A stretch of DNA of 64,000 nt from Elainellaceae cyanobacterium (GTDB lineage: Bacteria; Cyanobacteriota; Cyanobacteriia; CAZCXK01). This document shows, one piece after another, positions 1 to 47,870 of the stretch. Positions within the stretch are counted from its first letter, which is position 1. The number at the start of each line of letters is the position of its first letter. The position numbers were made by a program, and so were the translations under genes. Below the pieces are notes generated by a model. It was not told where the DNA came from and made no database searches. It saw nothing but the letters and a program-made list of their open reading frames with translations. The DNA is taken from assembly GCA_051117555.1 (NCBI GenBank), contig JBNPEG010000184.1, positions 24 to 64,023 on the forward strand. Reading direction: 5' to 3'.

Positions 1-1850
1 GGCTGGGCTATCTGCCCCTGGGGTTAGAGCTGGTGGGGCGCTTTTTACAGCGCAAACCCTGGACGCTGGCTAAAATGCAGCAGCGACTCAATGACAAACG
101 CCTGCAAGCCAGAGCCCTGTGTCAAGCCCAACCCGACATGACCGCTATCCATGAAAACGTGGCTGCCGCCTTTGAGGTGAGCTGGCAAGACCTGGATGAC
201 CCCGTGCAGGAGTTGGCCTACCGCCTCTGCCTGTTTGCCCTGGCTCCCATCCCATGGAAATGGATAGAGGACTGGTATGAAGACACCGACCCCGATGACC
301 TGGAAGACTGGCGCGATGAGGGACTGATCGACCGCAGCCTGGTGAAGACTGTCGATTGGGAACGGGAAACTGTGCAACTGCATCAGCTGATTCGAGAATT
401 CTTTCGCAGCAAGCTAGAGAAGTGGACTGAAGCCGATACCTTGAAGCGGCAATACTGTCAGCGCATGGTGCAAATCGCCCAAACCATTCCTCAAACACCG
501 ACCCGCGATCAGATTTTGGCGGTGACTTCGGCCATCCCCCACCTGGCAGAAGCCGCCACGACCTGGCAGCAATGGGTAGAGGATGATTCGTTAATCTGGC
601 CCTTCACGGGGTTGGGGCGGTTTTATGAAGGGCAAGGAGCTTATGGGCAGGCCAAACCCTGGTATGAAACCTGTCGAGAGGTGGTGGGCGATCGCCTGGG
701 CGAGGAGCATCCCGATGTGGCAACTAGCCTCAACAATCTGGCGGCACTCTACTTCAATCAAGGGCGCTATAGCGAGGCGGAACCCCTCTACCAGCAGGCG
801 CTGGCGATGAGCCAACGGCTCTTGGGCGAGGAGCATCCCGATGTGGCGCTTAGCCTCAACAATCTGGCGTTACTCTACAACCATCAAGGTTGCTATAGCG
901 AGGCGGAACCCCTCTACCAGCAGGCGCTGGCGATGAGCCAACGGCTCTTGGGCGACGAGCATCCCGCTGTGGCGCTTAGCCTCAACAATCTGGCGGCACT
1001 CTACAAAAATCAAGGGCGCTATAGCGAGGCGGAACCCCTCTACCAGCAGGCGCTGGCGATGAGCCAACGGCTCTTGGGCGACGAGCATCCCGCTGTGGCG
1101 CTTAGCCTCAACAATCTGGCGTTACTCTACAACCATCAAGGTTGCTATAGCGAGGCGGAACCCCTCTACCAGCAGGCGCTGGCGATGAGACAACGGCTCT
1201 TGGGCGACGAGCATCCCGATGTGGCGCTTAGCCTCAACAATTTGGCGGGACTCTACGCCGATCAAGGGCGCACTAGCGAGGCCGAACCCCTCTACCAGCA
1301 GGCGCTGGCGATGAATCAACGGCTCTTGGGCGAGGAGCATCCCGATGTGGCGAGTAGCCTCAACAATCTGGCGTTACTCTACGACCATCAAGGGCGCACT
1401 AGCGAGGCCGAACCCCTCTTTCAGCAGGCGCTGGCGATGAGACAACGGCTCTTGGGCGAGGAGCATCCCGATGTGGCGCGTGGCCTCAATAATCTGGCGG
1501 GACTCTACGACCATCAAGGGCGCTATAGCGAGGCCGAACCCCTCTTTCAGCAGGCGCTGGCGATATATCAACGGCTCTTGGGCGAGGAGCATCCCGCTGT
1601 GACGCGTGGCCTCAACAATCTGGCGTTACTCTACGACCATCAAGGGCGCTATAGCGAGGCCGAACCCCTCTACCTCCAAGCGATATCGGTGTTCTATCAA
1701 CAACTGGGAGAAAACCATCCCAACACCCAAACGGTTTTGAATAATTTTGTTGAGTTCCTTCGCAGGGTTATCAATTCGGGGCAAACGTCTGTGCTATCTG
1801 ACAATCCCATTACCCAACATCTGCTGCGTCAGCTTCAACAGCCAGAGTAA
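1..1850 (+). CDS. NB-ARC/TPR STAND NTPase-like protein, 5'-partial. The ORF stays open to the window start, and about eight consecutive TPR (TPR_10/12-like) repeats make up the C-terminal half.
   Basis: The reading frame upstream of the listed GTG at 33 has no stop back to base 3 and reads LGYLPLGLELVGR, which resembles the GLPLA motif of NB-ARC ARC domains. The C-terminal half consists of 42-aa repeats with the pattern NNLAxLYxxQGRYSEAEPLYQQALAMxQRLLGxEHPDVAxSL, typical of TPR units. Confidence 0.75.
   Translation, partial: LGYLPLGLELVGRFLQRKPWTLAKMQQRLNDKRLQARALCQAQPDMTAIHENVAAAFEVSWQDLDDPVQELAYRLCLFALAPIPWKWIEDWYEDTDPDDLEDWRDEGLIDRSLVKTVDWERETVQLHQLIREFFRSKLEKWTEADTLKRQYCQRMVQIAQTIPQTPTRDQILAVTSAIPHLAEAATTWQQWVEDDSLIWPFTGLGRFYEGQGAYGQAKPWYETCREVVGDRLGEEHPDVATSLNNLAALYFNQGRYSEAEPLYQQALAMSQRLLGEEHPDVALSLNNLALLYNHQGCYSEAEPLYQQALAMSQRLLGDEHPAVALSLNNLAALYKNQGRYSEAEPLYQQALAMSQRLLGDEHPAVALSLNNLALLYNHQGCYSEAEPLYQQALAMRQRLLGDEHPDVALSLNNLAGLYADQGRTSEAEPLYQQALAMNQRLLGEEHPDVASSLNNLALLYDHQGRTSEAEPLFQQALAMRQRLLGEEHPDVARGLNNLAGLYDHQGRYSEAEPLFQQALAIYQRLLGEEHPAVTRGLNNLALLYDHQGRYSEAEPLYLQAISVFYQQLGENHPNTQTVLNNFVEFLRRVINSGQTSVLSDNPITQHLLRQLQQPE
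700..1715. repeat. Intragenic tandem array of about eight near-identical 126-bp units encoding the TPR repeats.
   Basis: Long stretches such as agcgaggcggaacccctctaccagcaggcgctggcgatgagccaacggctcttgggcga recur at a 126-bp period. Frame-shifted minus-strand ORFs (870-1088, 1122-1340, 1374-1592) with near-identical translations are shadows of this repetition. Confidence 0.9.
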
Positions 1851-2140
1851 CCTATGGCCTAGAGACACAAAGGCTGAAATTCCCCAGCATCGTCAATGGG
1901 CATAAATCCAAACTCTAAAATCTAAAATCCAAAATCCAAAATCGATGGCAAGCAGTCTGCTCGTCTATGACTTTGTGAAAACGGCAGCCAAACATTCTCC
2001 CGGTCTTAAGAGCGTGGCTGACCAGTTGGGCGAACGGTTTAAGTCGATTAGTGGTCGTCGCCCCAAAGCAGACGTCACAACTGTTTAAGCCGTTTCGATA
2101 CGGAGTGCGATCGAGTCAGCCCTCACTCGATCACGTCCAG

Positions 2141-2402
2141 AGGCTCTTTAAAGAAGTTCTGAGAGTCTTTAAAGAGATTCAAAGACTCTCTAGACACTCT
2201 CAGAGACTCTTTAAAGAGATGCAGACACTCTCTAGACAATCCCAGAGACTCTTTAAAGAAGTTCCAAGACTCTCTAGACGATCCCAGAGACTCTTTAAAG
2301 AGGTTCCGAGACTCTCTAGACAATCCCAGAGACTCTTTAAAGAGGTTCGGAGACTCTTTAAAGAAGTTCAGAGACTCTCTAGAGAGATTCGAAGACTCTC
2401 TA
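2141..2402. repeat. Tandem array of about six 42-bp units with consensus AGACTCTCTAGACAATCCCAGAGACTCTTTAAAGAGGTTCCG. The 12-bp perfect palindrome CTCTTTAAAGAG is reiterated at least seven times.
   Basis: The repeat is directly visible. Both strands stay open across it (ORFs 2051-2422 + and 2123-2323 -) because of the palindromic periodicity. Unit variants are contiguous, with no interspersed unique spacers. Confidence 0.85.
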
Positions 2403-2419
2403 ATACCAATTCTCCTAAG

Positions 2420-2530
2420 TAAGTAGGTGAGACTAATTAAATATGAGACCTGTGTAGGTTGGGTTAGCGGTAGTGTAACCCAACAAAAATATTGCTAGCG
2501 TTGGGTTTCGCTACGCTCAACGCCAACCTA
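2420..2530 (+). promoter_or_regulatory. Structured 5'-leader element, copy L. It is a 46-bp core followed by hairpins (gttgggtta/taacccaac; tgtaggttgg/ccaacctaca). The core is near-identical to the inverted copy at 12548-12593.
   Basis: The core taagtaggtgagactaattaaatatgagacctgtgtaggttgggtt matches the reverse complement of 12548-12593 at 44 of 46 positions. The two copies also share downstream taacccaac...gggtt(t/a)cgcta segments. It lies about 60 nt upstream of the first GG-leader gene, in the same orientation. Confidence 0.6.
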
Positions 2531-2588
2531 CATTAGAACTTTTGTCAGTCAACGCGGATTTGTCAGATATTGTGGAGCACTATCTATC

Positions 2589-3017
2589 ATGCAAAACAAA
2601 CAACTGTTGGTTGATCTATCACCCGAGCAGTCTGCACTTATTGAAGGAGGCTATATGCTACACCTCCATAAAATTAAGGCTGTCAAAACAGGTGCCGATT
2701 CTGATGGCGTTGATGAGGCATATTTGTCTTTCTTTCCCGCTGATAAAATTCTTCCTACTGTTATCGGTGCTGGTAAAGTCTGGGGGGAAAGTATGAAAAG
2801 GGCAGATATCGCTCGCATCAACAAACGCTTTTCCATTGCAAGTAGCGGTTCAAGCCGCCTTAAGCTTTTTGACAACGACAGTTCTTGTAACTCAAGTCGT
2901 TTTGATTTAATCGGTGCGCTATCAATCTCAGGATTGCCACGTCGCAGAGCGAAAGCACGATTGAGCGGCGGCGGATCGACTTATGTATTGACGTATAGCG
3001 TCATGGCAACTTCCTGA
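2589..3017 (+). CDS. Double-glycine-leader precursor protein A (142 aa). The leader is MQNKQLLVDLSPEQSALIEGG and the core is about 120 aa of unknown family.
   Basis: The N-terminus fits the GG-leader consensus LSxxELxxIxGG (LSPEQSALIEGG). A paralog lies immediately downstream, followed by a C39-peptidase ABC exporter and HlyD. Conserved core motifs are HLHxIKAxKxGADxDGVDEAYLxFFP and RLSGxGSTYxLTYS. Confidence 0.8.
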   Translation: MQNKQLLVDLSPEQSALIEGGYMLHLHKIKAVKTGADSDGVDEAYLSFFPADKILPTVIGAGKVWGESMKRADIARINKRFSIASSGSSRLKLFDNDSSCNSSRFDLIGALSISGLPRRRAKARLSGGGSTYVLTYSVMATS

Positions 3018-3066
3018 CTCAGTCCGAAAAATCATTCTCATACAGATACAAGGAGGAACACTTATC

Positions 3067-3477
3067 ATGCAATCTAATCCATTGTTCATTGACCTATCAC
3101 CAGAACAATCTGCACTTATTGAAGGAGGATACATTTTTCACCTTCACAGTATTAAAGCCATTAAAGCAGGAGCCGATCGAGATGGTGTTGATGAGGCATA
3201 TTTGGCTTTCTTTCCTTCTATGGGTAGAGTAAACAAGATCTGGGAACGAAGCATGAAAACTGGCGATGTCGCTCGAATCAATCAACGGGTTCCTATTTCC
3301 AGAGTGGGGCGTACATCCCTTGCCCTTTTTGATGCAGATACCTGTAGTTCAGACGATTTGATTGGAGTTGTATCGAAGCCTAGACCGGCTCCAATACCGT
3401 TGCTTTTAGGACGTGGGACGATACGTTTGAGTGGCAGTGGCTCTACGTATGATTTGACATACAGCATTACTGCGTAA
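3067..3477 (+). CDS. Double-glycine-leader precursor protein B (136 aa), paralog of A. The leader is MQSNPLFIDLSPEQSALIEGG.
   Basis: A strong Shine-Dalgarno sequence aaggagg lies 8 nt upstream. The GG leader is identical in its last 12 residues to protein A. The core shares blocks with A: YxxHLHSIKAIKAGADRDGVDEAYLAFFP, ARINQR, LFDAD, DLIG, RLSGSGSTYDLTYS. Confidence 0.8.
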   Translation: MQSNPLFIDLSPEQSALIEGGYIFHLHSIKAIKAGADRDGVDEAYLAFFPSMGRVNKIWERSMKTGDVARINQRVPISRVGRTSLALFDADTCSSDDLIGVVSKPRPAPIPLLLGRGTIRLSGSGSTYDLTYSITA

Positions 3478-3517
3478 TCACAGCATCCTTAATTGCCCTC
3501 TTAATAGACTTTGAACT

Positions 3518-5731
3518 ATGCGATATCAACGTGTCCTTCAACATGACGAAGAAGACTGCGGCGCAGCCTGCGTTGCCACTGTTGCCAAACACCACGGGCG
3601 CACCTTAGCAATCAGTCGAATTCGGGAAGCCGTGGGCACCGGATCACGCGGTACGTCGCTACTCGGATTGAGTCGAGGCGCTGAATCATTAGGATTCAAC
3701 ACTCGTCAGGTGAAAGCAAACCCAGACTTTCTCGATCAGCTGCATCAAGCCCCCCTTCCTGTCATCATCCACTGGAACGGCTACCACTGGGTTGTTTTAT
3801 ATGGACGGCAGGGAAAGAAGTATGTGATTGCCGATCCAGCAGTAGGCATTCGGTATTTGACTCGTCGAGAACTGATGGAAGGGTGGGGCAATGGCGTGAT
3901 GCTATTGCTAGAACCTGATGATGGTTGGTTTTATCAGCAACCTGAAGACCAGATCGGTGGATTTGGGCGCTTTCTCCAGCGGGTGTTGCCCTATCGAAGT
4001 ATCTTGATTCAGGCGATCGCCATCAATATTTTGATTGGTCTACTATCCCTCGCGTCACCGCTGATGATGCAACTGCTCACGGATGATGTGCTGGTGCGGG
4101 GGGACACCCAACTTCTGACCACCGTGGCGATCGGCGTGATTGCGATGAATCTGTTTAGTAGCGTCATTAGTTTAGTGCAGGCGCATCTGATTGGTCATTT
4201 TGGTCAACGGCTGCAACTGGGCATGATTCTCGACTATGGGCGCAAGCTGCTGCACCTGCCCTTGAGCTACTTTGAAAGCCGTCGCAGTGGGGAAGTCGTC
4301 AGCCGCATTTCTGACGTGGATGCCGTCAATAGCCTGATTTCGCAAATCGTGTTGGGATTGCCTAGTGAATTTTTTATTGCGGTAGTATCTCTTTGTTTCA
4401 TGCTGTTTTATAGCTGGCAACTGACGCTGGCATCCCTGGCGGCTTTCGTGATCGTGACGGTAGTTAATCTGCTGTTTCTACCGGCTCTACGTCACAAAAC
4501 CCGCAATATGATTGTGTTGGGCACTGAAAATCAAGGCTTTCTGGTTGAAACATTTCGCGGGATGCAAATCCTCAAAACCACGCAAGCTACACCCCAAGCA
4601 TGGCAAGAATATCAAGCAAATTTCGGTCGGTTGGCTAATCTGGGCTGGGGCATGATGAAGCTAGAGCTGCACAGCGGCACCGTGACGGGCATTCTCTCAA
4701 CCCTGACAAGTATTTCACTGCTGTGGCTGGGTAGTTATCTGGTGATTGATCAGACGCTCACCGTGGGACAACTGCTCGCGTATAACGGCATGAGCGGCAA
4801 CTTTCTCGGCTTCCTGGGATCGGTGATTGGTTTGGTGGATGAATTTATCATGGCGCAGGTGGTGCTCCAGCGCTTAGCTGAAGTCATTGACGCGACGCCA
4901 GAAGATCAGCATGATAGCCAAAAGCCCTGGACAGAGATTCCAGCCGATGCGGATATCATATGTGCCGATCTCACCTTTCATCATGCGGGTCGGGTCGATT
5001 TGCTGCAAGATGTTTCCTTGTCCATTCCAGGCGGAGAGGTCGTGGCGCTGATTGGCAAGTCAGGCTGTGGCAAAAGCACCTTCGCTAAGCTGCTGGCTGG
5101 GTCGTATTTTCCCCAATCGGGCAACATTCGCTATGGGCTTTACAACCAGCGCGATTTGTCACTGGATTGCTTGCGGCAGCAGGTGATGTTAGTACCTCAA
5201 GAGCCCCACTTCTGGAGCCGTTCTATCATTGACAACTTCCGCTTTAGCTATCCCCACGCCACCTTTGAAAGTATCGTTCAAGCCTGTCAGATTGCGGGTG
5301 CGGATGAGTTCATTAGCAATCTACCTGACAAATACCAAACGGTGTTGGGTGAATTTGGTGCCAATCTGTCAGGCGGACAGCGGCAACGGCTGGCGATCGC
5401 CCGTGCCATTATCACTGATCCACCTGTCTTAATTCTGGATGAGTCAACAGGTGCTCTTGATCCGGTCAGTGAAGCCCAGATCCTTCAGCGGCTGTTTAAT
5501 AGTCGTCCAGGGAAAACTACGATTGTCATTAGCCATCGTCCCAGTGTTGTGCAACATGCCGACTGGCTGATCATGCTGGATCAGGGAAAGGTAGTCATTC
5601 AAGGTACGCCAGAAGATTTGCGACACCGACCCGGTGATCACCTCGATTTTCTGGGCGATGTGCCTTCATCCAATGGTTGGAATAGAAATGCAATTACGTG
5701 TACGGGCGAACGGACGTTCGCCCCTGCCTAA
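3518..5731 (+). CDS. Peptidase-C39-domain ABC transporter (PCAT; bacteriocin/GG-leader peptide processing exporter).
   Basis: The N-terminal C39 domain has the catalytic Cys in EEDCGAACVATV and His in YHWVVLYG. Six predicted TM helices are present. NBD motifs are Walker A GKSGCGKST, ABC signature LSGGQRQRLAIARA and Walker B LILDEST. Confidence 0.9.
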   Translation: MRYQRVLQHDEEDCGAACVATVAKHHGRTLAISRIREAVGTGSRGTSLLGLSRGAESLGFNTRQVKANPDFLDQLHQAPLPVIIHWNGYHWVVLYGRQGKKYVIADPAVGIRYLTRRELMEGWGNGVMLLLEPDDGWFYQQPEDQIGGFGRFLQRVLPYRSILIQAIAINILIGLLSLASPLMMQLLTDDVLVRGDTQLLTTVAIGVIAMNLFSSVISLVQAHLIGHFGQRLQLGMILDYGRKLLHLPLSYFESRRSGEVVSRISDVDAVNSLISQIVLGLPSEFFIAVVSLCFMLFYSWQLTLASLAAFVIVTVVNLLFLPALRHKTRNMIVLGTENQGFLVETFRGMQILKTTQATPQAWQEYQANFGRLANLGWGMMKLELHSGTVTGILSTLTSISLLWLGSYLVIDQTLTVGQLLAYNGMSGNFLGFLGSVIGLVDEFIMAQVVLQRLAEVIDATPEDQHDSQKPWTEIPADADIICADLTFHHAGRVDLLQDVSLSIPGGEVVALIGKSGCGKSTFAKLLAGSYFPQSGNIRYGLYNQRDLSLDCLRQQVMLVPQEPHFWSRSIIDNFRFSYPHATFESIVQACQIAGADEFISNLPDKYQTVLGEFGANLSGGQRQRLAIARAIITDPPVLILDESTGALDPVSEAQILQRLFNSRPGKTTIVISHRPSVVQHADWLIMLDQGKVVIQGTPEDLRHRPGDHLDFLGDVPSSNGWNRNAITCTGERTFAPA

Positions 5732-5898
5732 ACGATCCGCCCCTTCTGAATCAAATTTGAATACAACCTTTGAACCTTGCAATTACCTGTACGGGCGAAG
5801 CATTCGGTACACATCTTTACCTCTCTTTCATAGTACGGGCGAAGCATTCGGTACACATCTTTGCCTCTCTTTCATACCGTTTGCCCGAATGCTTCGCC
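5697..5898. repeat. Intergenic hairpin and direct-repeat cluster. A 43-bp unit gtacgggcgaagcattcggtacacatctttacctctctttcata occurs twice (5789-5831 and 5833-5875). A related palindromic hairpin gggcgaacggacgttcgccc lies at 5703-5722 and an inverted partial copy gtttgcccgaatgcttcgcc at 5879-5898.
   Basis: Directly visible in the sequence. It sits between the PCAT stop and the HlyD start. Confidence 0.7.
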
Positions 5899-5910
5899 TC
5901 TTCTACCTAA

Positions 5911-7305
5911 TTGAATTTGGATATAATCATGGCCTTAACCCATTCCTCGGATTCAACCAACCTGCCTCCCGTTTCTGCTAATGATTTTCTGCCACCCATT
6001 AGCCGCTGGACTACTACAGGAGGATTGGTGCTCATCGGCATCATGGGCATTGCGCTGGCGATCGCCTCGGTTGCCAAATACAAGGTCACAGTGAAAGCTC
6101 CGGCCAGCATTCGTCCGGCAGGAGAATTGCGAATTGTGCAAGCAGCAACAACGGGTGCTGTGACCCATATTTTGGTGAAAGAGAATCAAGCTATTCAAAG
6201 CGGAGACATGATTGCGTTGATTGATGATTCGCAACTACAAACTAAAAAGAGCCAACTGCAAAGCGCCACCCAACAGGCTCGACTTCAAATTGCCCAGATT
6301 AATGCTCAAATTCAAGCACTCGGCGATCAAATAGTAGCTGAAGAAGACCGTATGAATCGGGCGATCGCCGCTTCTGAGGCAGAACTTAGCCAACAACATC
6401 GAGATTATCAGAACCAGCAAATTAGTACTGTAATGGAAGTCGAGGAAGCAGAAGCAGAAGTCCGATCGGCAGTGGCTAGTCTGGGTGCGGCTGAATCTCG
6501 GTATCACCGCTACCAGCCCGTTGCTCAAGCGGGTGCCCTTTCCCAAGATCAACTTGAAGAGGCACACCTGGCAGTTCAGCAACAAGAACAAGCCGTCGAA
6601 GCCGCTCAAGCACGACTGCATAGACTCCAGGCAAGGTTAAATCCCAGTTCAGCCAACGTGGCGATCGCCACTGAACGCATTGCCCAAGAACAGGCAACAG
6701 GTGCTGCTACCCTTGCCGCATTGAATAAAGAGCGGGAGGCACTGATTCAACAACGGGTAGAGATGCAAAAGCAACTAGAGCAAGACACCCGCGAACTTCA
6801 GCAAGTCGAAACTGATTTGCATCAGACGGCGATCGTCGCTACGTCTGATGGCATACTTTCAACCTTGAATCTACGAAATCCAGGACAAACTGTTAGTGCA
6901 GGAGAAACCATTGCTCAGATTGTTCCAGATGACACCCCGCTGCAAATCAAAACATTTGTGCCCCCTGAACATAGAAGCAAGCTGAATGAAGGGCAATCAG
7001 CGCTGATGCGAGTGTCTGCATGTCCCTATCCCGACTATGGCACGCTCAACGGCACGGTCAGTCAAATCTCTGAAGATACGATTAAGCCCCAAACTAGCGA
7101 TACTTTGGCAGGAAGTGTTACTACTTCTGAAAATGCACCACCCACTTACGAAGTTACTATCGAGCCAAATAACTTTGTTTTGACTAGGGGCGCAGCGGAA
7201 TGTCCTATTGAGCTGGGAATGGAAGGAACCGTTGACATTATTTCGAGAGAAGAAACGGTTCTACAGTTTTTCCTGAGAAAAGCTCGGTTGATTGCAGATA
7301 ATTGA
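5911..7305 (+). CDS. HlyD-family periplasmic adaptor (membrane fusion protein) of a type I / PCAT secretion system.
   Basis: It has an N-terminal TM segment LVLIGIMGIALAIASVA followed by a long Q/A/E-rich coiled-coil region. The C-terminal beta-rich domain ends in the conserved FFLRKARL-like motif typical of HlyD/CvaA adaptors. Its position immediately after the PCAT fits this role. Confidence 0.8.
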   Translation: MNLDIIMALTHSSDSTNLPPVSANDFLPPISRWTTTGGLVLIGIMGIALAIASVAKYKVTVKAPASIRPAGELRIVQAATTGAVTHILVKENQAIQSGDMIALIDDSQLQTKKSQLQSATQQARLQIAQINAQIQALGDQIVAEEDRMNRAIAASEAELSQQHRDYQNQQISTVMEVEEAEAEVRSAVASLGAAESRYHRYQPVAQAGALSQDQLEEAHLAVQQQEQAVEAAQARLHRLQARLNPSSANVAIATERIAQEQATGAATLAALNKEREALIQQRVEMQKQLEQDTRELQQVETDLHQTAIVATSDGILSTLNLRNPGQTVSAGETIAQIVPDDTPLQIKTFVPPEHRSKLNEGQSALMRVSACPYPDYGTLNGTVSQISEDTIKPQTSDTLAGSVTTSENAPPTYEVTIEPNNFVLTRGAAECPIELGMEGTVDIISREETVLQFFLRKARLIADN

Positions 7306-7747
7306 CGAACTAAACGAGAGTCGAAGCGCATTAGATACCGCCAGAGGTGCTTTTAAGAGAGATTCTATAGATTCATACTTCTACAGACCGTTAAAAAATT
7401 TCTCAGTAGACGATTCAAATCGCATTCTCAAAATTACGAAAACTTATAGCGGTATGTGCTTGAGTTAGGACGCTGCACGTGGGGTGAACCCGTAGAGCTA
7501 TATCAGCCGATTCAGTGCTGTCAGGGAGGAGCGTAATTTTATCGGTCGACTTCATTTTTCCACTCATGATATAAATTTTTCTAATCTCAGGTATCTCCCA
7601 TTGACTCTCAGCATATGTCTCAAGAAATATTTCTATCTCATTCGCTTGACCTCCACTAAGGTGGAAAGTCTAGGGTAAACATATTAGAAAGGGCGATCGC
7701 CTTGATTCGTCATGTTCCGACGCTGCATATATTCTTGAGGACGCGCT

Positions 7748-9781
7748 ATGACACATTCGCCAAAGAATTCCAATTCTACTCATCAACAGGCTGGAACCAA
7801 CGGTCATAGTAACCAAGGCGGACACAGCGGGCACGGACATCACAGCCCTGACATGTTTCGACGAAAGTTTTGGATTAGTGTGATCCTGACGATCCCAATC
7901 TTATACTTCTCACCTCAGTTGCAAGACTGGCTCGGCTATCAAGCTGCTCAGTTTCCAGGGTCAGCTTGGATTAGCCCTATTCTGGCGATCGCCATCTACT
8001 TTTATGGAGGGTGGGTCTTTTTGCAAGGTGCGTGGCACGAATTCCAAAGCCGCATTGGCATGATGACGCTGATTGCGCTGGCGATTACCGTCGCATTTAT
8101 CTACAGCTTGGCAGTTTCCCTCGGGCTCTCAGGCACTCCCTTTTATTGGGAACTAGCGACCCTGATCGATATTATGTTGCTGGGTCACTGGGTTGAAATG
8201 GCATCCGTTCAGCGTGCGAGCAAAGCCCTAGAGCAACTGGCAGAACTCGTTCCGTCACAAGCCCATCGCATCACAGATGGAGACATCGAAGACGTGTCTG
8301 TCAGCGAGATTCAGACTGATGATGTGGTACTGATTCGTCCAGGAGAACAAATTCCCAATGATGGGGTTGTCATTGACGGAGAAACCAGCGTTAACGAGTC
8401 ATTCTTAACGGGGGAGTCGCGCCCAATTCCCAAACAAGATGGGGATGAAGTCGTTGCGGGTGCGGTAAATGGGGAAGGAGCGATCAAAGTTAAGGTGACG
8501 CGCACAGGAGATGAGACAACCCTCAACCAAATGATGCGATTAGTTGAAGAGGCTCAGTCGTCTCGCAGTGGCTATCAGCTACTTGCGGATCGTGCTGCCG
8601 CTTGGCTCACCTTTATTGCGATCGCAGCTGGAGTCGCCACATTTATTGTCTGGCTATCGTTGCAAGACCTTTTATTTGCCATCAATCGGAGCGTCACCGT
8701 GTTGGTGATTACGTGCCCCCATGCGCTAGGGTTAGCAATCCCGTTGGTGATTGTTAATGCAACGGCACTGGCTGCAAATAACGGGATCTTAGTTCGCAAT
8801 CGAGATGCGCTGGAGCGCGCGCGTAATATCAAGCTTGTGGCATTTGATAAGACCGGAACTTTGACCCAGGGCACGTTTGGCGTTCAGCATGTATACACCG
8901 ATAACTGGAATGAATCGGATGCATTGGCGATCGCTGCTGCCCTGGAAATCCCGTCTGAGCATTCCCTAGCTGCTGCCATCGTTGATTCTGCCAAAGAGCG
9001 TCAGCTTCAAATTCCTGAGGTTGAAGACTTTAAGCCTGTTGCCGGACGAGGAGTGCAAGGTCAACTACACAGCAAACACTATCGAATTGGTCGTCCTGAA
9101 TGGTTGAAAGAATTAGATCTAGCTCTACCCCCTGCGCTTCAAGATGGACTGGATGATGCCAATCAGCGGGGTGAAAGCGCAGTAGTGATGGTTGAAGATG
9201 ACACGCCCGTTGCCGTGATCTCAATGGCTGATCAGATTCGGCAGCAGGCTCGGCAAGCGATTCAAGATCTGAAAGCGCTTGATATTCAGGTGGCGATGGT
9301 GACGGGCGATGCAGAAGCAGTTGCACGCACCGTGGCGGATGAGCTCGGAATCGATCGGTATTATGCTCGCGTACTTCCCGAAGATAAAGTAGATATTATC
9401 AAACGGCTCAAGCGGGACGGGGCGATCGCTTTTGTAGGCGATGGTATTAACGATGCGGCTGCCTTACTAGAAGCAGATTTAGGCATTGCCATTGGTGCGG
9501 GTACGAATGTGGCGATTGAGTCGGCTGATTTGGTTCTGATTGAGGATAGCCCGCTAGATGCCGTAAAAGCCTTGCGACTTGCTCGAAAGACCTATGGCAA
9601 AATGATTCAAAATATTTTTTGGGCAACGGGCTACAACGTGATTGCAATCCCGCTTGCGGCAGGCGTTGCATACGCATGGGGGATTCTACTCTCTCCGGCA
9701 GTAGGGGCCATCATCATGAGTTTGTCGACGGTCATTGTGGCCATAAATGCGGTGTTGCTACGTCGAGCTAAACTTGCCTAG
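7748..9781 (+). CDS. Heavy-metal-translocating P1B-type ATPase (CopB-like; His-rich N-terminus with a CPH motif).
   Basis: The N-terminus is histidine-rich (GHSNQGGHSGHGHHSPD). The actuator motif LTGESRP, the TM6 motif CPH (VITCPHALGLAIP), the phosphorylation motif DKTGTLT and the hinge VGDGINDAAAL are all present. Confidence 0.9.
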   Translation: MTHSPKNSNSTHQQAGTNGHSNQGGHSGHGHHSPDMFRRKFWISVILTIPILYFSPQLQDWLGYQAAQFPGSAWISPILAIAIYFYGGWVFLQGAWHEFQSRIGMMTLIALAITVAFIYSLAVSLGLSGTPFYWELATLIDIMLLGHWVEMASVQRASKALEQLAELVPSQAHRITDGDIEDVSVSEIQTDDVVLIRPGEQIPNDGVVIDGETSVNESFLTGESRPIPKQDGDEVVAGAVNGEGAIKVKVTRTGDETTLNQMMRLVEEAQSSRSGYQLLADRAAAWLTFIAIAAGVATFIVWLSLQDLLFAINRSVTVLVITCPHALGLAIPLVIVNATALAANNGILVRNRDALERARNIKLVAFDKTGTLTQGTFGVQHVYTDNWNESDALAIAAALEIPSEHSLAAAIVDSAKERQLQIPEVEDFKPVAGRGVQGQLHSKHYRIGRPEWLKELDLALPPALQDGLDDANQRGESAVVMVEDDTPVAVISMADQIRQQARQAIQDLKALDIQVAMVTGDAEAVARTVADELGIDRYYARVLPEDKVDIIKRLKRDGAIAFVGDGINDAAALLEADLGIAIGAGTNVAIESADLVLIEDSPLDAVKALRLARKTYGKMIQNIFWATGYNVIAIPLAAGVAYAWGILLSPAVGAIIMSLSTVIVAINAVLLRRAKLA

Positions 9782-9871
9782 GTCATGCGATCGCACGTCA
9801 GCAATAGTTGATAATAAGTGGAAAGCCCGATTTATTTGTGTTCACATCCTTAGTAGTACGCGGCAATAGTA

Positions 9872-12145
9872 TTAAGCAAGGGGTAAAAACTCGGCTTCGA
9901 CCTCACTCCGAACGCTCTCATTGGCGGCAAAGACTAGCAATCGAACCGGCATATCATTGTCGAGTTCAATGTCATCAACTTGGATGCCTTGAGAAGAAAG
10001 ATTAAATTCAATCGGGGAGATGCCATCGGGCTGTACTTCAAACGCATCCGCTACGGTAAAATCGAGCGGCAGATCGATTTCGACATCGGGGCTAGATTCA
10101 TCAAATATCCAGTGGGGAACACTGCCTTCAGAATTCACCAGCAGACATTCTAAGTCACTCGGTTCACTCTCGGTATCGAGGCTAATGATGGGGACAATCA
10201 ACGCATCACGCGCTTGAATCACTTCAACAAGTGTTTCATCGTCTGATGATGCAGCTCCTGTTACGTCACCTTCCCGGAGCCACGGTCGGACGGCTCGAAC
10301 CATTGCATTCATATCGGCGATCGCTTGCCACCGTTCAGGTGCTTCTTCGGCTTCATCCTGGTTGACCTGAAACCACAACAGTCCTTTTGCTCCTGCGGCA
10401 ACTGCCATCATTCCTTGAGCCAAAATTTCTTGCGGGTCAGGCTGCACGCTAAATTCATCTCCTCCCAAAAGTGGGCTGCGATTCCAAGCCGGAGACAGCC
10501 CCTGAGTATACATCCACGTCGTGAGAGGCATATGGTTGTTGCGGGTGTTACGAAGATAGTCGAACGTAGCTCGCAGAGGAGGATGTTCACCGAATGATGT
10601 CACATGGGGCGCACAGGCGGCGGTGTAAAAGTCCATCCCTTGGATATCGGTCATGCCTGCAAATGAACCGATATGTTTATTCGTTTTGCCCCCATTAAAC
10701 GTCGGAAGTTCGGGATATCGCTGCCACGATCGCCACGAGTCTCGTGCTTTCAGGGCAGGAATTGGAATGCCCGTATCATCGTCATAGATGGTATCGTCTG
10801 ATTCATCGCCTGTGACAACGGCAGCAATACCAGAGGTGTTTGTAAAGTCTGGAAAGTTTCGACCGGGGTTGATATAGGGGTTGTAGTTGACAAAGGCGCT
10901 AAAGCCTTCCAAGCTCCCTAACTCATCGTTGATTACTGTATAAGGATCACACACTCCATCGTCACAGGTCGTCCCGTTCACAAAAATCGTATCAATCCCG
11001 GCCTCACGGATATTTTGATAGTTTTCGACGTTTCCCGATGGAAATGGGCGTTCTGATGTATTATTCCACGCCATTACCGGGAAAAACTCAGGAATAACGC
11101 GCCCCGTTCCCACCGCCGCCGCCGCATTTGCGTATTCCACCACCACAGTCCAAGCATCACCCGGAGCAGTAGGCTCTGCTAAAGGAACTGTCCATAGATC
11201 GTGGGACTCTGCGGCAATCGTTCGATCAGAAATTGCGGCAGGATTAGATTGCAAGATATCGACCCCATTCACCCAAACCCGCTCAACCTGATGAGCGATT
11301 TCATCGGTATTTTGTACATGAATGATAAAACTAGAGTAGTTGTCAGCAGTCGTGACATAGGTAAGCGGCGCTGGCGTTTGCGCGACAGAGAAGCGCCCGT
11401 CGACTACGATACCCTGATTCGTTTCGACTCGAATCGAGCCGCTATCGACAGCATCCCATTTGGCATCACGAGAATGAAAGTTAACCCAGATAGGCTCTCC
11501 CGCTTCAGCGCGTCGAGGCCACACATGCACCCATTCAAATGGGGGAGTTTCGCTAGGATTGCGTTCATAGATGACTTGCCGTTCGATGCCATCAATAGAA
11601 ACGTGAGTGACTCGTCCAGACGATTGAGCCGTCGTCGCAATTTGGATTCGCCCGCCCGTTAGAGGTTCAGGTGTGTCTTCATCGTAGACATCGTTCGGGA
11701 AAAAAAAGTCTTTGCGATAGGTTGCAAAGATGGACGGAGCTGTTGAAATATCGGTTGATGGCGTTGCAGGGGAAGAAAGGGATTTGGATTCGCGGATCAG
11801 GCTGTCATCAATTTGAGAGCCTGATGACGTGGGTGCAACGAGCGCATCGTTGGCTCTCCCGCCGATGAGCGATCGCCCCCTCGAACCCTCAGATTGATTT
11901 GAAGTATCACGCGTAGTCCGCCGGAACCGTTGATCAAGGAGGGATTCAGAGTCAGGCAATAAGGAGCTATCAGGTCTAGTTTCGACCAATTCAGCAGCGG
12001 CAACATCAGGGGCAGCAAGTATCTGTCGCGTCGTCTGTTGAGATATGAGGGTTGGACGTGAAAAAAGGGGATCTTCAGATTGGGAACGAATCAGGTTGGT
12101 AGTTAGCGACCCTTCATCAGACAGTAGAGTGTTGATTAGCTCCAT
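9872..12145 (-). CDS. Hypothetical 757-aa protein. It has a Ser/Thr/Pro-rich, probably disordered N-terminal region of about 150 aa and then a large domain of unrecognised family.
   Basis: It is a long uninterrupted ORF with coding-like composition. No Walker, catalytic or repeat motifs were recognised. It is convergent with the ATPase gene. Confidence 0.6.
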   Translation of the reverse strand: MELINTLLSDEGSLTTNLIRSQSEDPLFSRPTLISQQTTRQILAAPDVAAAELVETRPDSSLLPDSESLLDQRFRRTTRDTSNQSEGSRGRSLIGGRANDALVAPTSSGSQIDDSLIRESKSLSSPATPSTDISTAPSIFATYRKDFFFPNDVYDEDTPEPLTGGRIQIATTAQSSGRVTHVSIDGIERQVIYERNPSETPPFEWVHVWPRRAEAGEPIWVNFHSRDAKWDAVDSGSIRVETNQGIVVDGRFSVAQTPAPLTYVTTADNYSSFIIHVQNTDEIAHQVERVWVNGVDILQSNPAAISDRTIAAESHDLWTVPLAEPTAPGDAWTVVVEYANAAAAVGTGRVIPEFFPVMAWNNTSERPFPSGNVENYQNIREAGIDTIFVNGTTCDDGVCDPYTVINDELGSLEGFSAFVNYNPYINPGRNFPDFTNTSGIAAVVTGDESDDTIYDDDTGIPIPALKARDSWRSWQRYPELPTFNGGKTNKHIGSFAGMTDIQGMDFYTAACAPHVTSFGEHPPLRATFDYLRNTRNNHMPLTTWMYTQGLSPAWNRSPLLGGDEFSVQPDPQEILAQGMMAVAAGAKGLLWFQVNQDEAEEAPERWQAIADMNAMVRAVRPWLREGDVTGAASSDDETLVEVIQARDALIVPIISLDTESEPSDLECLLVNSEGSVPHWIFDESSPDVEIDLPLDFTVADAFEVQPDGISPIEFNLSSQGIQVDDIELDNDMPVRLLVFAANESVRSEVEAEFLPLA

Positions 12146-15155: not shown

Positions 15156-17684
15156 CTAGTTGGAAGGAGCGTCAGCAACGTGATCCAGGGAGGCGATCGC
15201 CACCGCAGTAATCAGTTCTTGCTTCGGCATTTTGACAATGCGATCGCCCTTCTCATCTTTGCCTCGCAGCGGAGCGGTCTCAACTGGAAGCTGCGCAACT
15301 CGATCGGCATTCGTAATCACGGTGACTGAGGTTCCTGAGTATGCAGGAACAATCCCGACGAGCGAGTCTGTCTTATTAGCAAACTGGATGGCCTGAATGC
15401 CAATATCTCCTCGATTTGAACGTTTGAGGGCATCACCGGGCATCCGTTTGGCATAGCCCTGAGTCGTAACGACTAGCACCTCGTCGCGTTCTTCCGATAA
15501 TCGGGCACACCCAACCAGCTCTTCCTTCTTGCTGAGGCGCAAGGCTGCCTGCCCTTGAGCCGCGCGCCCCATCATGGGGAGCTGCTCATCATCCACCTCA
15601 AAGCGGAGCATCCGTCCGCCTGAGGTCGCTAAAATCAACTGTTCTCTAACCCGGACGAGGCTCACATACAAGACTTCATCATTCTCTTTTAGTTTTAAGG
15701 CTGTGAGCCCCCGCCCTGTGAGATTCGTAAACTCAGACAAGGGGAGCCGTTTAATGCGTCCACGACGGGTCACGATGATCAGGTCATCCTGTTCGTTATC
15801 GGGCGAATGGATAAACTGGGCGGCGATCGCTTCCGGATCACCTTGCACAGAGGGCGGCAGCATCGTGACCAGCGGGGTTCCCTTTGAGTTACGCGACGTA
15901 GGTGGAATATCGCCCACCATCACGGTATATGCTCGCCCGCTGCGTGTCAGTGCCAAAATTTCTTGTCCCGTGGTAGCCGCTTCGACCTGAATAATCGTGT
16001 CGCTGCTCTCTTCTAGAGAGTGTGACTCTTGAGAATCTTGACGGGCTTGTCGCCGTTCATAGGATTTTCTCGAATACCGGCGGACATAGCCCTGCTGCGT
16101 AACCTCCAGTACAACATCTTCTTCAGCCGCCGCTTCAGCCGCCGCTATTTCGGCCAGTCGTTCCGATTCTTCGGCTCGCTCGGCTTCGCTTTGAATGCGA
16201 GTCCGCCGGGGGTCGCCAAACTTTTTCTTGAGGGTTCGCAGATCTTTCTTGAGTGCTTTGAAAAACTCCCGGCGATTTGTCAACAACTCCGTGAGAGTTT
16301 GCATCCGCTCGCTTAGCTCGTCAAACTCAGTTTGCAGTTTTTGCCGCTCTAGCCCTGTCAAGCGACGGAGGGGCATGGCCAAAATCGCATCGGCTTGGCG
16401 ATCGCTAAAGTCAAATTGCTCTTGGAGTTCTGCTTTAGCACTCGTGCCGTCTGGCGCATTGCGCAAAATGTCGATGATGTCATCCAGAATTTCTAGGGCT
16501 GCGAGTAAACCAGCGACCAGGTGGCTTCTATCTTCCGCTGCTTGCAATTCGTGCTGATATTGCCGAGTCAGCGTCTCTTCACGAAAACTAAGGAAATGCT
16601 GGAGCAACTCTCGCAGGCTCATCTGACGCGGCTGCCCATCGGCGAGCGCCAGCAAAATAGCACCAAAGTTACTTTGCAGGGGAGTCAGTTTGTAGAGGCG
16701 ATTGAGAACGGTTTCGGGGTGAACTTCTCGCTTTAGCTCAATGACAACGCGCATTCCTTGGCGATCGCTCTCATCCCGAATATCAGAAATGCCATCAATC
16801 CGGTTATTGTTGACCAACTCCGCAATCTTCTCAATGCAGGCCGCCTTATTAACCTGGAACGGCATTTCGGTAATGATGATCGCAGGGCGACGATGACGCC
16901 CCCGTCCCGTTTGAATCTCCTCAAATTGGGCGATACCTCGAACCGGAATACTCCCTCGCCCCGTTCGATATGCATCGCGAATACCCTGCGTATCTATGAT
17001 TTCTCCGCCTGTCGGAAAGTCAGGCCCTGGAATGAGATCAAAGAGCTGCTCATCCGATAGAGTGGGGCGATCGATCAGAGCAATGAGCCCATCCACAACC
17101 TCGCCTAGGTTATGAGGCGGAACATTCGTTGCCATACCGACCGCAATCCCTGAACTGCCATTGAGCAGTAAAAACGGCAGTTGAGCAGGCAAAACAATCG
17201 GCTCTTGCTGGGAGCTATCAAAGTTGTCAATAAAATCGACAGTGGCTTCTCCAATCTCATCGAGCAAACAATCATCGCCAATGGGCGCGAGACGCGTCTC
17301 GGTATACCGCATCGCCGCAGGCGGATCATTATCCACCGAGCCAAAATTGCCGTGCCCTGCCAGCAACGGATAGCGACTCGAAAAGTCTTGAACCATTCGC
17401 ACCAGGGCGTCGTAGACCGCCTGATCCCCATGCGGATGATATTTACCGAGCACATCCCCCACCACGCGAGCGCACTTACGATGGGGGCGATCGGGAGTTA
17501 AGCCAAGTTCATGCATCGCGTATAGAATGCGTCGATGCACAGGTTTTAGCCCATCTTTGGCATCGGGAAGTGCCCGTCCAACGATGACACTCATGGCATA
17601 TTCCAAATACGACCGCTGCACCTCGGTGTGCAATGCGGTTCCGACGACTTGACCTGGAGAGAGAATATTGAGCTGTCTTGCCAT
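15156..17684 (-). CDS. gyrA: DNA gyrase subunit A.
   Basis: The N-terminal motifs [29 protein letters not shown] and the active-site [10 protein letters not shown] (catalytic Tyr) are present. The 842-aa length, with a C-terminal beta-pinwheel region, fits GyrA. Confidence 0.9.
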
Positions 17685-47105: not shown

Positions 47106-47870
47106 ATGGCTCCTACACCGTTTCTGACAATTGACGACCAATCCGTTTCACTGGCTCAGGCTGTTCGTTATTTGCAAACTGCGCGGAAATTTGATGCGTT
47201 TATTGGAGAGATCCTTCGTCAGTTCGTCGTCGAACAAGAGTTGCGGACTCGAGATGACCTTCATGTGAGTTCGCCCGTCATTGAGCAGGCAATTATTGAT
47301 TTTCGTCTCCAGCGGCAACTGACTGACCCCAAGCAGTTTCAGGAATGGTTGGCTGCAAACGGTACTACCTACGACACGTTTCATAATCAGATTGCGACAG
47401 GATTTAAGCTCAAGAAACTCAAGGATGCGATCGCCCAATCCAAGCTTCAAGAATATTTCATTGAACGCAAAATTTATCTCGATCGGGTCGTCATTTCTCG
47501 TATCATCGTCGCGGATAAAGAGCTTGCCGACGAGTTGAAAAGTCAAATTGAAGAAGGGAGCAGCAGCTTCGAGCAGCTCGCGCGCGACTATTCGTTAACG
47601 GATGACCGGATTGTAAACGGCATGGTGGGGCCCGTAAGTCGGGGATCGATGCCTGATTTACTGAGAGTTGCAATCGATGAGGCACAACCGGGGGAAATTG
47701 TCGGCCCCATTGGGATGGAAGAACGGTGGGGCTTATTTCGAATTGAAGAGATGCTACCCGCATCGCTAGATAACCCTCAACTAAGACAGTCGCTCCAAGA
47801 CGAGTTGTTTGAGCAATGGCTAGCTGAGAAAATGCAGAATTTACCCATCAAGCTGCAGGTGGGTGAATGA
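47106..47870 (+). CDS. Parvulin-type (PpiC/PrsA-like) peptidyl-prolyl isomerase domain protein.
   Basis: The C-terminal region ISRIIVADKELADELKSQIEEGSSSFEQLARDYS...GMVGPVSRGSMPDLLRVAIDEAQPGEIVGPIGMEERWGLFRIEEM resembles PpiC rotamase domains. Its stop overlaps the start of the downstream ABC gene (ATGA). Confidence 0.55.
   Translation: MAPTPFLTIDDQSVSLAQAVRYLQTARKFDAFIGEILRQFVVEQELRTRDDLHVSSPVIEQAIIDFRLQRQLTDPKQFQEWLAANGTTYDTFHNQIATGFKLKKLKDAIAQSKLQEYFIERKIYLDRVVISRIIVADKELADELKSQIEEGSSSFEQLARDYSLTDDRIVNGMVGPVSRGSMPDLLRVAIDEAQPGEIVGPIGMEERWGLFRIEEMLPASLDNPQLRQSLQDELFEQWLAEKMQNLPIKLQVGE

Follow-up and report, generated by a model that had tools for sequence, protein, structure and literature searches.

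A four-gene module in a 64-kb stretch of DNA from an Elainellaceae cyanobacterium (contig JBNPEG010000184.1; the whole 64,000 nucleotides are referred to here as the window) was found to encode two small paralogous proteins with double-glycine (GG) leaders, an ATP-binding cassette (ABC) transporter of the peptidase-containing kind (PCAT) and a HlyD-family periplasmic adaptor. With a little better than even confidence, we interpret it as a module with which this filamentous cyanobacterium exports stand-alone C2-like proteins that bind Ca2+ and, outside the cell, anionic surfaces. The export architecture is already known from cyanobacterial GG-leader/PCAT/HlyD clusters (PMC3140520). What is new is the class of cargo, a conserved, unannotated stand-alone domain with a predicted C2-like fold and a full set of putative Ca2+ ligands, which is tied to one ortholog group of PCATs. 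The features read directly from the sequence are the gene order, the leaders, the intact catalytic and ATPase motifs, purifying selection, conservation across the family (the acidic cluster included) and synteny.

The original prediction for this stretch had described two adjacent open reading frames (ORF1 and ORF2) with 21-residue GG leaders, followed by an exporter and an adaptor, and all four genes were found on the plus strand where it had placed them (Table 1). ORF1 and ORF2 encode paralogs with 53% identity (BLASTP, E 2e-48), and GGAG is found about 10 nt 5' of the ORF1 ATG. Identical proteins are recorded in an Elainellaceae cyanobacterium metagenome-assembled genome (MAG) as ACFE0J_21565 (ORF1) and ACFE0J_21570 (ORF2), both annotated as hypothetical. 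The ratio of nonsynonymous to synonymous substitutions (dN/dS, Nei-Gojobori) was 0.16 between the two ORFs, where dS is near saturation, and 0.12-0.21 against orthologs on two other contigs; the figures for ORF1 were 0.16-0.19. Because these ratios are low, ORF1 and ORF2 are taken as real genes under purifying selection, and the near-saturated dS indicates that their duplication is old. Within the window, the family core or leader profiles match ORF1 and ORF2 only. The ORF listing for positions 1850-7750 holds no evident small membrane-protein ORF of the immunity type, as had been noted before, and no such gene was called in the related loci either. The mature proteins, expected at about 115-120 aa, come to 121 and 115 aa. 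They had also been called unusually large, which holds in relation to microcins but not in relation to the GG precursors of 28-164 aa reported from cyanobacteria (PMC3140520); since that survey lists precursors of up to 164 aa, the size of the window precursors alone is not unprecedented.

Double-glycine leaders span about 15-30 residues up to a terminal GG (or GA/GS), which adjoins the mature part, and carry hydrophobic residues at positions -4, -7, -12 and -15 of an amphipathic helix. Both window leaders are 21 residues long and end in LSPEQSALIEGG (IEGG), that of ORF1 (MQNKQLLVDLSPEQSALIEGG) being followed by YMLHLH and that of ORF2 (MQSNPLFIDLSPEQSALIEGG) by YIFHLH. Their match to the GG consensus, which had been described as a textbook one, stands at -1, -2, -4, -11 and -12 (and at -15), with Ile at -4 and Leu at both -12 and -15, but it fails at -7, which is Ser. 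The family consensus shows Ile/Val at -4, Ala at -7, Leu at -12 and Phe at -15. The ORF1 leader matches a leader profile built from family members with E 8e-13, and the leader consensus EQLFTELTPEQAAVIEGG (...AAVIEGG) sits directly before strand 1 of the core in about 32 of the roughly 46 family clusters. No match of the window proteins to NHLP, N11P or any other NCBIfam leader family was observed at E<=0.1. Hydrophobic contacts of the leader have been described for PCAT1 (PMC6959990).

The exporter had been predicted from its catalytic Cys (DCGAAC) and His (HWVVLY), and both residues are in place within a full set of catalytic and ATPase motifs. It matches the Pfam families Peptidase_C39 (E 3.9e-36), ABC_membrane (E 3e-38) and ABC_tran (E 2.1e-30) and aligns end to end with the solved structure of PCAT1 (4ry2, E 1.5e-102) and with ComA. 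Its scores lie under the cutoffs of the NCBIfam equivalog and subfamily models and it was therefore not placed in a named NCBIfam subtype. The adaptor expected after the exporter was recognised by HlyD_3 (58.6 bits against a cutoff of 22.2, E 1.2e-15) and Biotin_lipoyl (28 bits against 22.1), together with a match to TIGR01843 (E 1.4e-45) that scores 156 bits, under the 208.65 cutoff. Its orthologs align only from residue 7-9 of the 464-aa ORF and therefore the start is more likely ATG 5929 than TTG 5911. The spacer between these two genes contains a 44-bp unit repeated twice at 5789-5905 (97% match) and an inverted repeat, GGCGAAGCATTCGG / CCGAATGCTTCGCC, of 14 nt with 100% complementarity. 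This spacer repeat looks like a short interspersed cyanobacterial repeat, and the PCAT ORF has its C-terminal tail pointing towards it.

When 1.84 billion cluster representatives were searched exhaustively with a profile (E<=0.001), 51 hits were obtained. Five of these were false, namely the immunoglobulin V-set proteins P0006, P0007, P0038 and P0040 and the DUF5649 repeat protein P0042, and they were recognised by the other Pfam families that they matched or by failing a broadened profile. With these removed, the family comprises about 46 clusters, of which about 32 are single-domain proteins of 118-158 aa with a GG leader; the remaining clusters have a Sec-type signal peptide with one or two domains, are leaderless or are multi-domain. 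A word-indexed homolog search found 4 proteins with ORF1 as the query and 12 with the profile. No GG-leader member, the two window proteins included, has a Pfam match and all named members are annotated as 'hypothetical protein'. The named GG-type members belong to Moorena, Calothrix, Leptolyngbya, Dulcicalothrix and the Elainellaceae MAG, all of them filamentous cyanobacteria, while non-GG members were found in Prosthecochloris, a Rhizobiaceae MAG and Streptomyces. Dulcicalothrix desertica PCC 7102 and Leptolyngbya sp. NK1-12 are carriers that can be cultured. The Sec-type signal peptides on some members suggest that the domain acts extracytoplasmically in several phyla.

An orthologous PCAT was found directly downstream of the GG-leader gene in all seven loci examined, and the HlyD gene comes next in each of the six whose contig reaches that far. 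These loci are the window, L001 (a stromatolite MAG), L006 (Dulcicalothrix desertica PCC 7102), L007 (Calothrix sp. SM1_7_51), L011, L012/L013 and L014, the last being a short contig with a PCAT fragment only. The original prediction of an unannotated GG-leader family with its own C39 exporter and HlyD adaptor is thus borne out, and homologs, PCAT and HlyD genes do co-occur in these loci. The PCAT link is strong, which argues against a cytoplasmic family with no connection to a PCAT, despite the minority of relatives that are leaderless or have Sec-type signal peptides. Four full-length PCATs were compared and are 69-92% identical to the window copy, whereas the cargos are only 35-60% identical. 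In most of the related loci, the C2-like gene is present only once.

Two sister loci carry a different GG-leader cargo upstream of the C2-like gene (L001 525-932 and L004 156-497). These cargos are beta-gamma-crystallin-like and contain NDxxSS-type motifs; the ND.xSS-type motif is the Ca2+ motif of microbial crystallins. They match Pfam Crystall with E 3.8e-6 and 1.2e-4, and one of them passes the threshold (27.4 bits against a cutoff of 25). As sister loci carry such additional GG-leader proteins, one PCAT group seems, from the gene neighbourhoods, to have as its cargo a cassette of small beta-rich proteins that differ from one another. Unclassified GG-leader cargos of 100 and 129 aa are also located upstream of the C2-like gene in L002 (202-504) and L011 (7223-7612), respectively. 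In L007 (2005-5847), frameshifts break up the PCAT and HlyD genes downstream of the C2-like gene into several ORFs, which could be an assembly error or pseudogenisation.

Other relatives occur in different settings. As an example, P0057 is a leaderless member of 107 aa present on 19 contigs (L008 8001-8324, also L009 and L010), where it is closely followed by genes for a caspase-like protein of 1192 aa (Peptidase_C14) and a Peptidase_C14-nSTAND-WD40 protein, with adjoining transposase/resolvase genes. Unlike the PCAT loci, this locus may be a conflict system. Multi-domain relatives are P0008 (615 aa), P0011 (636 aa, Prosthecochloris spp.), P0033 and P0052. In P0008, three tandem C2-like copies are followed by about 250 residues without a Pfam match and in P0011, about 270 N-terminal residues without a Pfam match precede three copies. 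The C2-like domain in these proteins may be a targeting module for some effector.

C2 domains are Ca2+-dependent membrane binders familiar above all from animals and plants. The link of the cores to them comes mainly from predicted structure. An AlphaFold2 model of the ORF1 core built from 4 aligned sequences has eight beta strands, with a mean predicted local distance difference test score (pLDDT) of 82.5 and a predicted template modelling score (pTM) of 0.79; with 58 domain copies, these values rise to 90.1 and 0.84 and the strands are unchanged. The predicted model is an eight-strand antiparallel beta-sandwich with C2 topology. In the Foldseek search, the perforin C2 domain came first (E 2.9e-5, probability 1.00), followed by SmC2P1, Munc13 C2B and dysferlin C2A, each with probability 1.00. 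Perforin-type C2 domains (mouse perforin, 4y1s/7pag; SmC2P1, 3w56/3w57) therefore resemble the window cores in their eight-strand sandwich as well as being the best structural matches. A resemblance is also seen in local motifs, where GADxDGxDEAYL of the family corresponds to GDADTATDAYLKV and LFDxD..DDLIG to VWDADAGADDDLLG, although the sequence identity between the window cores and these domains is only 8-18%. Strand 1 of the core model starts one residue past the cleavage site, which fits leader processing before folding.

Profile comparisons point in the same direction. Searching PDB sequences with the 58-copy family profile gave 17 matches at E<=10, 16 of which are C2 domains, and the 4-sequence family profile had no match there. 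The relative with three tandem domain copies, P0008, scores 32.4 bits with Pfam C2 (E 1.1e-7), over the cutoff of 22, which P0049 (E 0.0011) and P0033 (E 0.0099) do not reach. When the family was aligned with small C2 alignments in hhalign, a probability of 92.6-95.1% and E-values down to 3.3e-8 were obtained for the b5-loop-b6 motif. One of these alignments, made from database hits (A6), was spoiled by intron read-through in fragmentary eukaryotic gene calls; with a cleaner alignment of 4 sequences (A7), the match was still local and covered 24 columns. The original prediction could assign the cores to no described family, and this holds for Pfam and NCBIfam, where neither ORF1 nor ORF2 had a match even at E<=10 at full length or as the core only. 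It no longer holds at the level of the superfamily, as the models allow the cores to be placed as distant C2 members. We consider the C2 fold of the predicted models well supported, and homology of the window cores to C2 domains as distant superfamily members probable, though not proven. A phmmer search of ORF1 against PDB sequences gave only TRIM2 proteins (E about 0.5), which were rejected as chance matches.

The conserved blocks previously listed for the cores are all visible in our alignments and include a putative Ca2+ site. In the profile hidden Markov model (HMM) alignment, which is of marginal significance, core positions 16 and 22 (GADxDGxDE) align with perforin D429 and D435, and positions 74, 76 and 85 (LFDxD....DLIG) align with D483, D485 and D491. 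These five perforin residues coordinate Ca2+ and mutating them abolishes function (PMC10400287). Positions 16, 22, 74, 76 and 85 were observed to be acidic in 55, 54, 58, 58 and 58 of the 58 domain copies, respectively, and position 21 is Asp in all 58. In the model, the acidic residues would be located at one tip of the sandwich in the b1-b2 and b5-b6 loops, as are the Ca2+-binding regions of C2 domains with type II topology.

From these observations, we infer the following route for cleavage, export and Ca2+ binding. Two paralogous precursors would be made, each with an acidic 21-residue GG leader, for which the C39 domain of the PCAT (Cys14/His90/Asp106) would be the docking site. The cargo would enter the transporter while still unfolded and the leader would be cut after Gly21, with ATP-driven exit through the PCAT, HlyD and a TolC-like outer-membrane channel encoded elsewhere. 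Outside the cell, the 115-121-residue core would fold into a C2-type beta-sandwich that stands alone and has its strands in the type II order, and the five to six near-invariant Asp/Glu residues at one tip (b1-b2 and b5-b6) may then bind Ca2+, which is abundant outside and scarce inside. The Ca2+-loaded tip could attach the protein to anionic surfaces, the candidates being phospholipid or lipopolysaccharide (LPS) membranes, or acidic exopolysaccharide, whether from the sheath or mat of the producer or from other cells. At some loci, two unrelated Ca2+-binding folds occur together, which suggests that the cargos might fold on contact with extracellular Ca2+ in the manner of RTX proteins.

Several points weigh against this interpretation. 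The fold assignment rests on predicted models and the sequence similarity of the window proteins to C2 domains is marginal, the best PDB match having E 0.018 and the hhalign match being confined to 20-24 columns. Pfam C2 (PF00168) matches neither the window proteins nor 33 of the 34 single-domain members. Both window leaders have Ser at -7, where a hydrophobic residue is usual, and no TolC-like gene was found among the large window ORFs that were scanned. The isoelectric point (pI) is 9.5-10 in the window subfamily but below 6 in 21 of the 37 GG-type members, and as net charge varies in this way a single common electrostatic target is not obvious. A minority of relatives are leaderless and located in other contexts, for example beside caspase-like and NTPase-WD40 genes, so the domain is not exclusively extracellular. 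Size is a further difficulty. The PCAT1 cavity is 15,000 A^3 and its 66-aa cargo 9,000 A^3 (PMC6959990); scaled from these figures, the window cargos would occupy about 15,700-16,500 A^3, which is at or above the size of the cavity. A model in which the cavity takes up the cargo in one shot is thus stretched to its limit, and either the window PCAT is different or the cargo would be threaded through.

The other explanations differ mainly in what the exported protein is for. ORF1 and ORF2 might be bacteriocins, in the form of large class II microcin-like toxins or a two-component pair that damages the membranes of competing cyanobacteria, with the C2-like tip targeting or permeabilising them. 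The combination of GG leader, PCAT and HlyD is that of colicin V and the class II microcins and also of the cyanobacterial 'bacteriocin' clusters (PMC3140520), the tandem paralogs are reminiscent of two-peptide bacteriocins, the fold is closest to the C2 domain with which the pore former perforin targets membranes, and the window subfamily is strongly basic. We nevertheless regard such a toxin as quite unlikely. Apart from a domain of the targeting type, the proteins have none that forms pores or acts as an enzyme, the family includes many acidic members and most related loci are single-copy, so that a two-component toxin is no family property. Selection is purifying (dN/dS 0.12-0.21) and the family is conserved across cyanobacterial orders, not diversifying; in addition, the mature proteins of 12.5-13 kDa exceed the usual microcin limit (<10 kDa) and no immunity-like small membrane protein is found nearby. 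A Ca2+-dependent surface- or matrix-binding exoprotein is therefore favoured over a classical bacteriocin, both on these grounds and because of the biofilm precedent of EbfG/PteB. That precedent, which ties GG-motif proteins to cyanobacterial biofilm (PMC4997328), would also suit a somewhat unlikely variant in which the exported beta-sandwich is a Ca2+-dependent carbohydrate- or mineral-binding module (lectin-like or like a carbohydrate-binding module, CBM) that organises the sheath or binds Ca2+ at calcifying surfaces and does not bind lipid. Relatives from a stromatolite metagenome and from mat- and sheath-forming filamentous cyanobacteria, the co-resident beta-gamma-crystallin cargos with another extracellular Ca2+-binding fold, and a range of net charge that fits varied polymer targets are all in keeping with it. 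Its weakness is that the top structural matches are C2 domains, not CBMs or lectins, and that the acidic constellation is that of the lipid-binding C2 Ca2+ site, residue for residue; only the ligand separates it from the Ca2+-binding, surface-attached protein that we prefer.

Two further explanations would remove the folded, exported core altogether. If ORF1 and ORF2 were precursors of peptides that are made by the ribosome and modified after translation (RiPPs), similar to NHLP or N11P, the product would be only a short modified fragment. GG-leader precursors in cyanobacteria, at lengths of up to 164 aa, do often belong to RiPPs (PMC3140520), but here the leader has just 21 aa and matches neither NHLP, N11P nor any other NCBIfam leader family, no modifying enzyme genes (LanM, cyclodehydratase, S8/M16 peptidase) were found in the window locus or its relatives, and the entire core is conserved and predicted to fold with a pLDDT of 90, which makes a RiPP very improbable. 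It is scarcely credible, too, that the proteins are cytoplasmic, with a GG motif that arose by chance and a neighbouring PCAT that serves some other cargo. Eukaryotic C2 domains are classically cytoplasmic and some family members are wholly leaderless in unrelated contexts, yet the leader is a distinct conserved module in about 32 clusters and is absent precisely in those members that lack a PCAT neighbour or have Sec signals. The PCAT is also syntenic in 7 of 7 loci and the window has no other GG-leader ORF for it to serve.

The export of C2-like cargos proposed here can be compared with several known systems. EbfG1-4 of Synechococcus elongatus PCC 7942 have a role in biofilm and their secretion, with PteB, needs the conserved peptidase cysteine (PMC4997328). 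They resemble the window locus in being small cyanobacterial GG-motif proteins encoded in tandem beside a C39-peptidase ABC transporter, and their role is extracellular and non-antibiotic, as we propose for the window proteins (PMC4997328). Mature EbfG proteins are 6-7 kDa, with no recognised domain and no homologs in other cyanobacteria (PMC4997328), whereas the window cargos, set apart from them by description, are 12.5-13 kDa and belong to a family found across cyanobacterial orders with a predicted C2 fold and Ca2+ site. In the survey of cyanobacterial double-glycine 'bacteriocins' by Wang, Fewer and Sivonen (2011), most precursor cores were unclassified, clusters were grouped by their enzymes, and 150 of the 290 precursors were placed under 'other' (PMC3140520). 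Clusters of that survey resemble the window in having a short-type C39 ABC transporter and HlyD beside GG-leader precursors, and no C2-like or crystallin-like cargo class is described in it; our family is set apart by these descriptions, the survey supplement being without sequences.

Similarities and differences are also seen with better-characterised exporters. Colicin V and other class II microcins (CvaC with CvaA-CvaB-TolC) share with the window a GG leader, an ABC exporter with a C39 domain and an adaptor of the HlyD type, and their outer-membrane channel is encoded elsewhere, as is proposed for the window. They are, however, antibacterial peptides of less than 10 kDa with a paired immunity gene, whereas the window encodes a larger predicted folded domain under purifying selection with no immunity gene. 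The window PCAT shares its catalytic Cys/His arrangement with that of the PCAT1-CtA pair of Clostridium thermocellum (PMC6959990; 4ry2), which is the source of the model in which the cargo is unfolded in the transmembrane cavity during leader cleavage (PMC6959990). CtA has 66 aa and about 9,000 A^3 compared with 115-121 aa and about 16,000 A^3 for the window cargos, which would also have a second membrane to cross via HlyD and an outer-membrane channel. The RTX/type I system (HlyA with HlyB-HlyD-TolC) likewise joins its ABC exporter to a HlyD adaptor and a channel in the outer membrane, and in both RTX and, putatively, window cargos the Ca2+ sites would be empty in the cytoplasm and filled outside, suggesting folding after export. 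In RTX proteins, the signal is at the C-terminus and is not cleaved and there are nonapeptide repeats (GGxGxD), and the C39-like domain of HlyB is inactive; in contrast, the window proteins have an N-terminal leader that is predicted to be cleaved, an exporter with intact C39 catalytic residues and no RTX repeats, none of the GGxGxD type being present in the ORF1 and ORF2 sequences. The perforin C2 domain differs as well, being the C-terminal targeting domain of a eukaryotic pore former, whereas the window domain is stand-alone, bacterial and PCAT-linked.

An analysis from 2012 concluded that C2 domains were not known outside eukaryotes (PMC3495828), and in a literature coverage that is incomplete we found no paper on bacterial secreted C2 domains or on C2 cargos of PCATs. 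Tentatively, and with more doubt than assent, we suggest that the cores could be true prokaryotic homologs of eukaryotic Ca2+-dependent C2 domains, closest to the perforin type, in a free-standing secreted form. Together with the GG-leader crystallins they might then make up a class of PCAT/type I cargos consisting of whole Ca2+-binding domains, which stay unfolded in the low-Ca2+ cytoplasm and fold on extracellular Ca2+. If so, the folding ratchet of RTX proteins would have been reached by another route, the origin of C2 domains would have a bacterial starting point and the view of what PCATs can carry would be widened.

PCATs are usually treated as exporters of peptides such as bacteriocins, quorum signals and RiPPs. 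The window cargos are about as large as the whole PCAT1 cavity and therefore the size limit and transport mode of a PCAT become directly testable. A bacterial extracellular domain of predicted C2-like fold would be a simple model for Ca2+-dependent surface binding, and the family is a data point on whether C2 domains predate eukaryotes. Secreted Ca2+-binding proteins in filamentous cyanobacteria associated with mats, sheaths and stromatolites could affect adhesion, sheath organisation and calcification. In addition, about 46 clusters of 'hypothetical proteins' gain a predicted fold and a testable function.

Table 1. Features of the export module in the window (nucleotide positions count from the first letter of the window; aa, amino acids)
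Feature	Position	Strand	Description	Basis
ORF1	2589..3017	+	142 aa precursor, C2-like secreted protein paralog A (predicted)	ORF listing
ORF1 leader	2589..2651	+	21 aa, MQNKQLLVDLSPEQSALIEGG, pI 4.1, predicted cut after Gly21	
ORF1 mature core	2652..3014	+	121 aa, 13.0 kDa, pI 9.9, predicted eight-strand C2-type beta-sandwich	
ORF1 acidic cluster			D37, D42/E43, D95, D97, D106 (precursor numbering)	
ORF2 ribosome-binding site	3051..3056	+	AGGAGG, 10 nt 5' of ORF2 ATG	Read from sequence
ORF2	3067..3477	+	136 aa precursor, C2-like secreted protein paralog B (predicted)	ORF listing
ORF2 leader	3067-3129	+		
ORF2 core	3130-3474	+	115 aa, 12.5 kDa, pI 9.5	
PCAT	3518..5731	+	737 aa; starts 40 bp after ORF2 stop codon	Pfam, NCBIfam, full-length matches to PCAT1 and ComA, motifs
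PCAT C39 domain	3524-3919	+	aa 3-134	
PCAT catalytic residues	3557-3559 (Cys14); 3785-3787 (His90); 3833-3835 (Asp106)		Gln8; Cys14 (DCGAAC); His90 (HWVVLY); Asp106	
PCAT transmembrane domain			aa 166-427	
PCAT nucleotide-binding domain motifs			Walker A aa 513, signature 617, Walker B 638, H-loop 671	
HlyD-family periplasmic adaptor (membrane fusion protein)	5911..7305	+	ORF from TTG 5911, 464 aa; ATG 5929 start gives 458 aa	

The locus is surrounded by chromosomal housekeeping genes, for example gyrA, glnA and a penicillin-binding protein gene. A scan of positions 1800-7800 for promoters and terminators found fewer sites than in shuffled sequence, and the Rfam scan of window positions 1-10000 gave no match. 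About 12.7 tandem copies of a 21-bp unit (5.8 of a 42-bp unit) are located at 2138-2403, 190 bp 5' of ORF1. This array is built on the palindrome CTCTTTAAAGAG, and all 7 copies of the motif GACTCTTTAAAGA in the window lie within it (chance expectation 0.07). The array could be a regulatory site or merely a local repeat and it yields a spurious 123-aa ORF (2051-2422) with QRLFKEV repeats. Its 21/42-bp motif was absent from all 14 related loci and is therefore no conserved part of the export system. Positions 1904-1943 and 2456-2540 hold a heptamer repeat (AAATCCA x 5.7) and an imperfect inverted repeat seen by eye, GTAGGTTGGGTTAGCG ... CGCTCAACGCCAACCTAC, the latter between ORF1 and the gene upstream. 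This upstream gene (33-1850) encodes a 605-aa protein with about 10 very regular 42-residue TPR_12/TPR_10 repeats (TPR_12 E 4e-140).

Further along the window, a P-type ATPase gene (7748-9781) has a 757-aa ORF downstream of it on the minus strand (9872-12145) with no Pfam match at E<=0.1. A second ABC exporter of 851 aa is encoded at 47106-50422 and contains ABC_membrane and ABC_tran, with no C39 domain detected. It has an N-terminal extension of about 290 residues without a Pfam match at E<=1e-5 and is preceded by an overlapping ORF of 254 aa.

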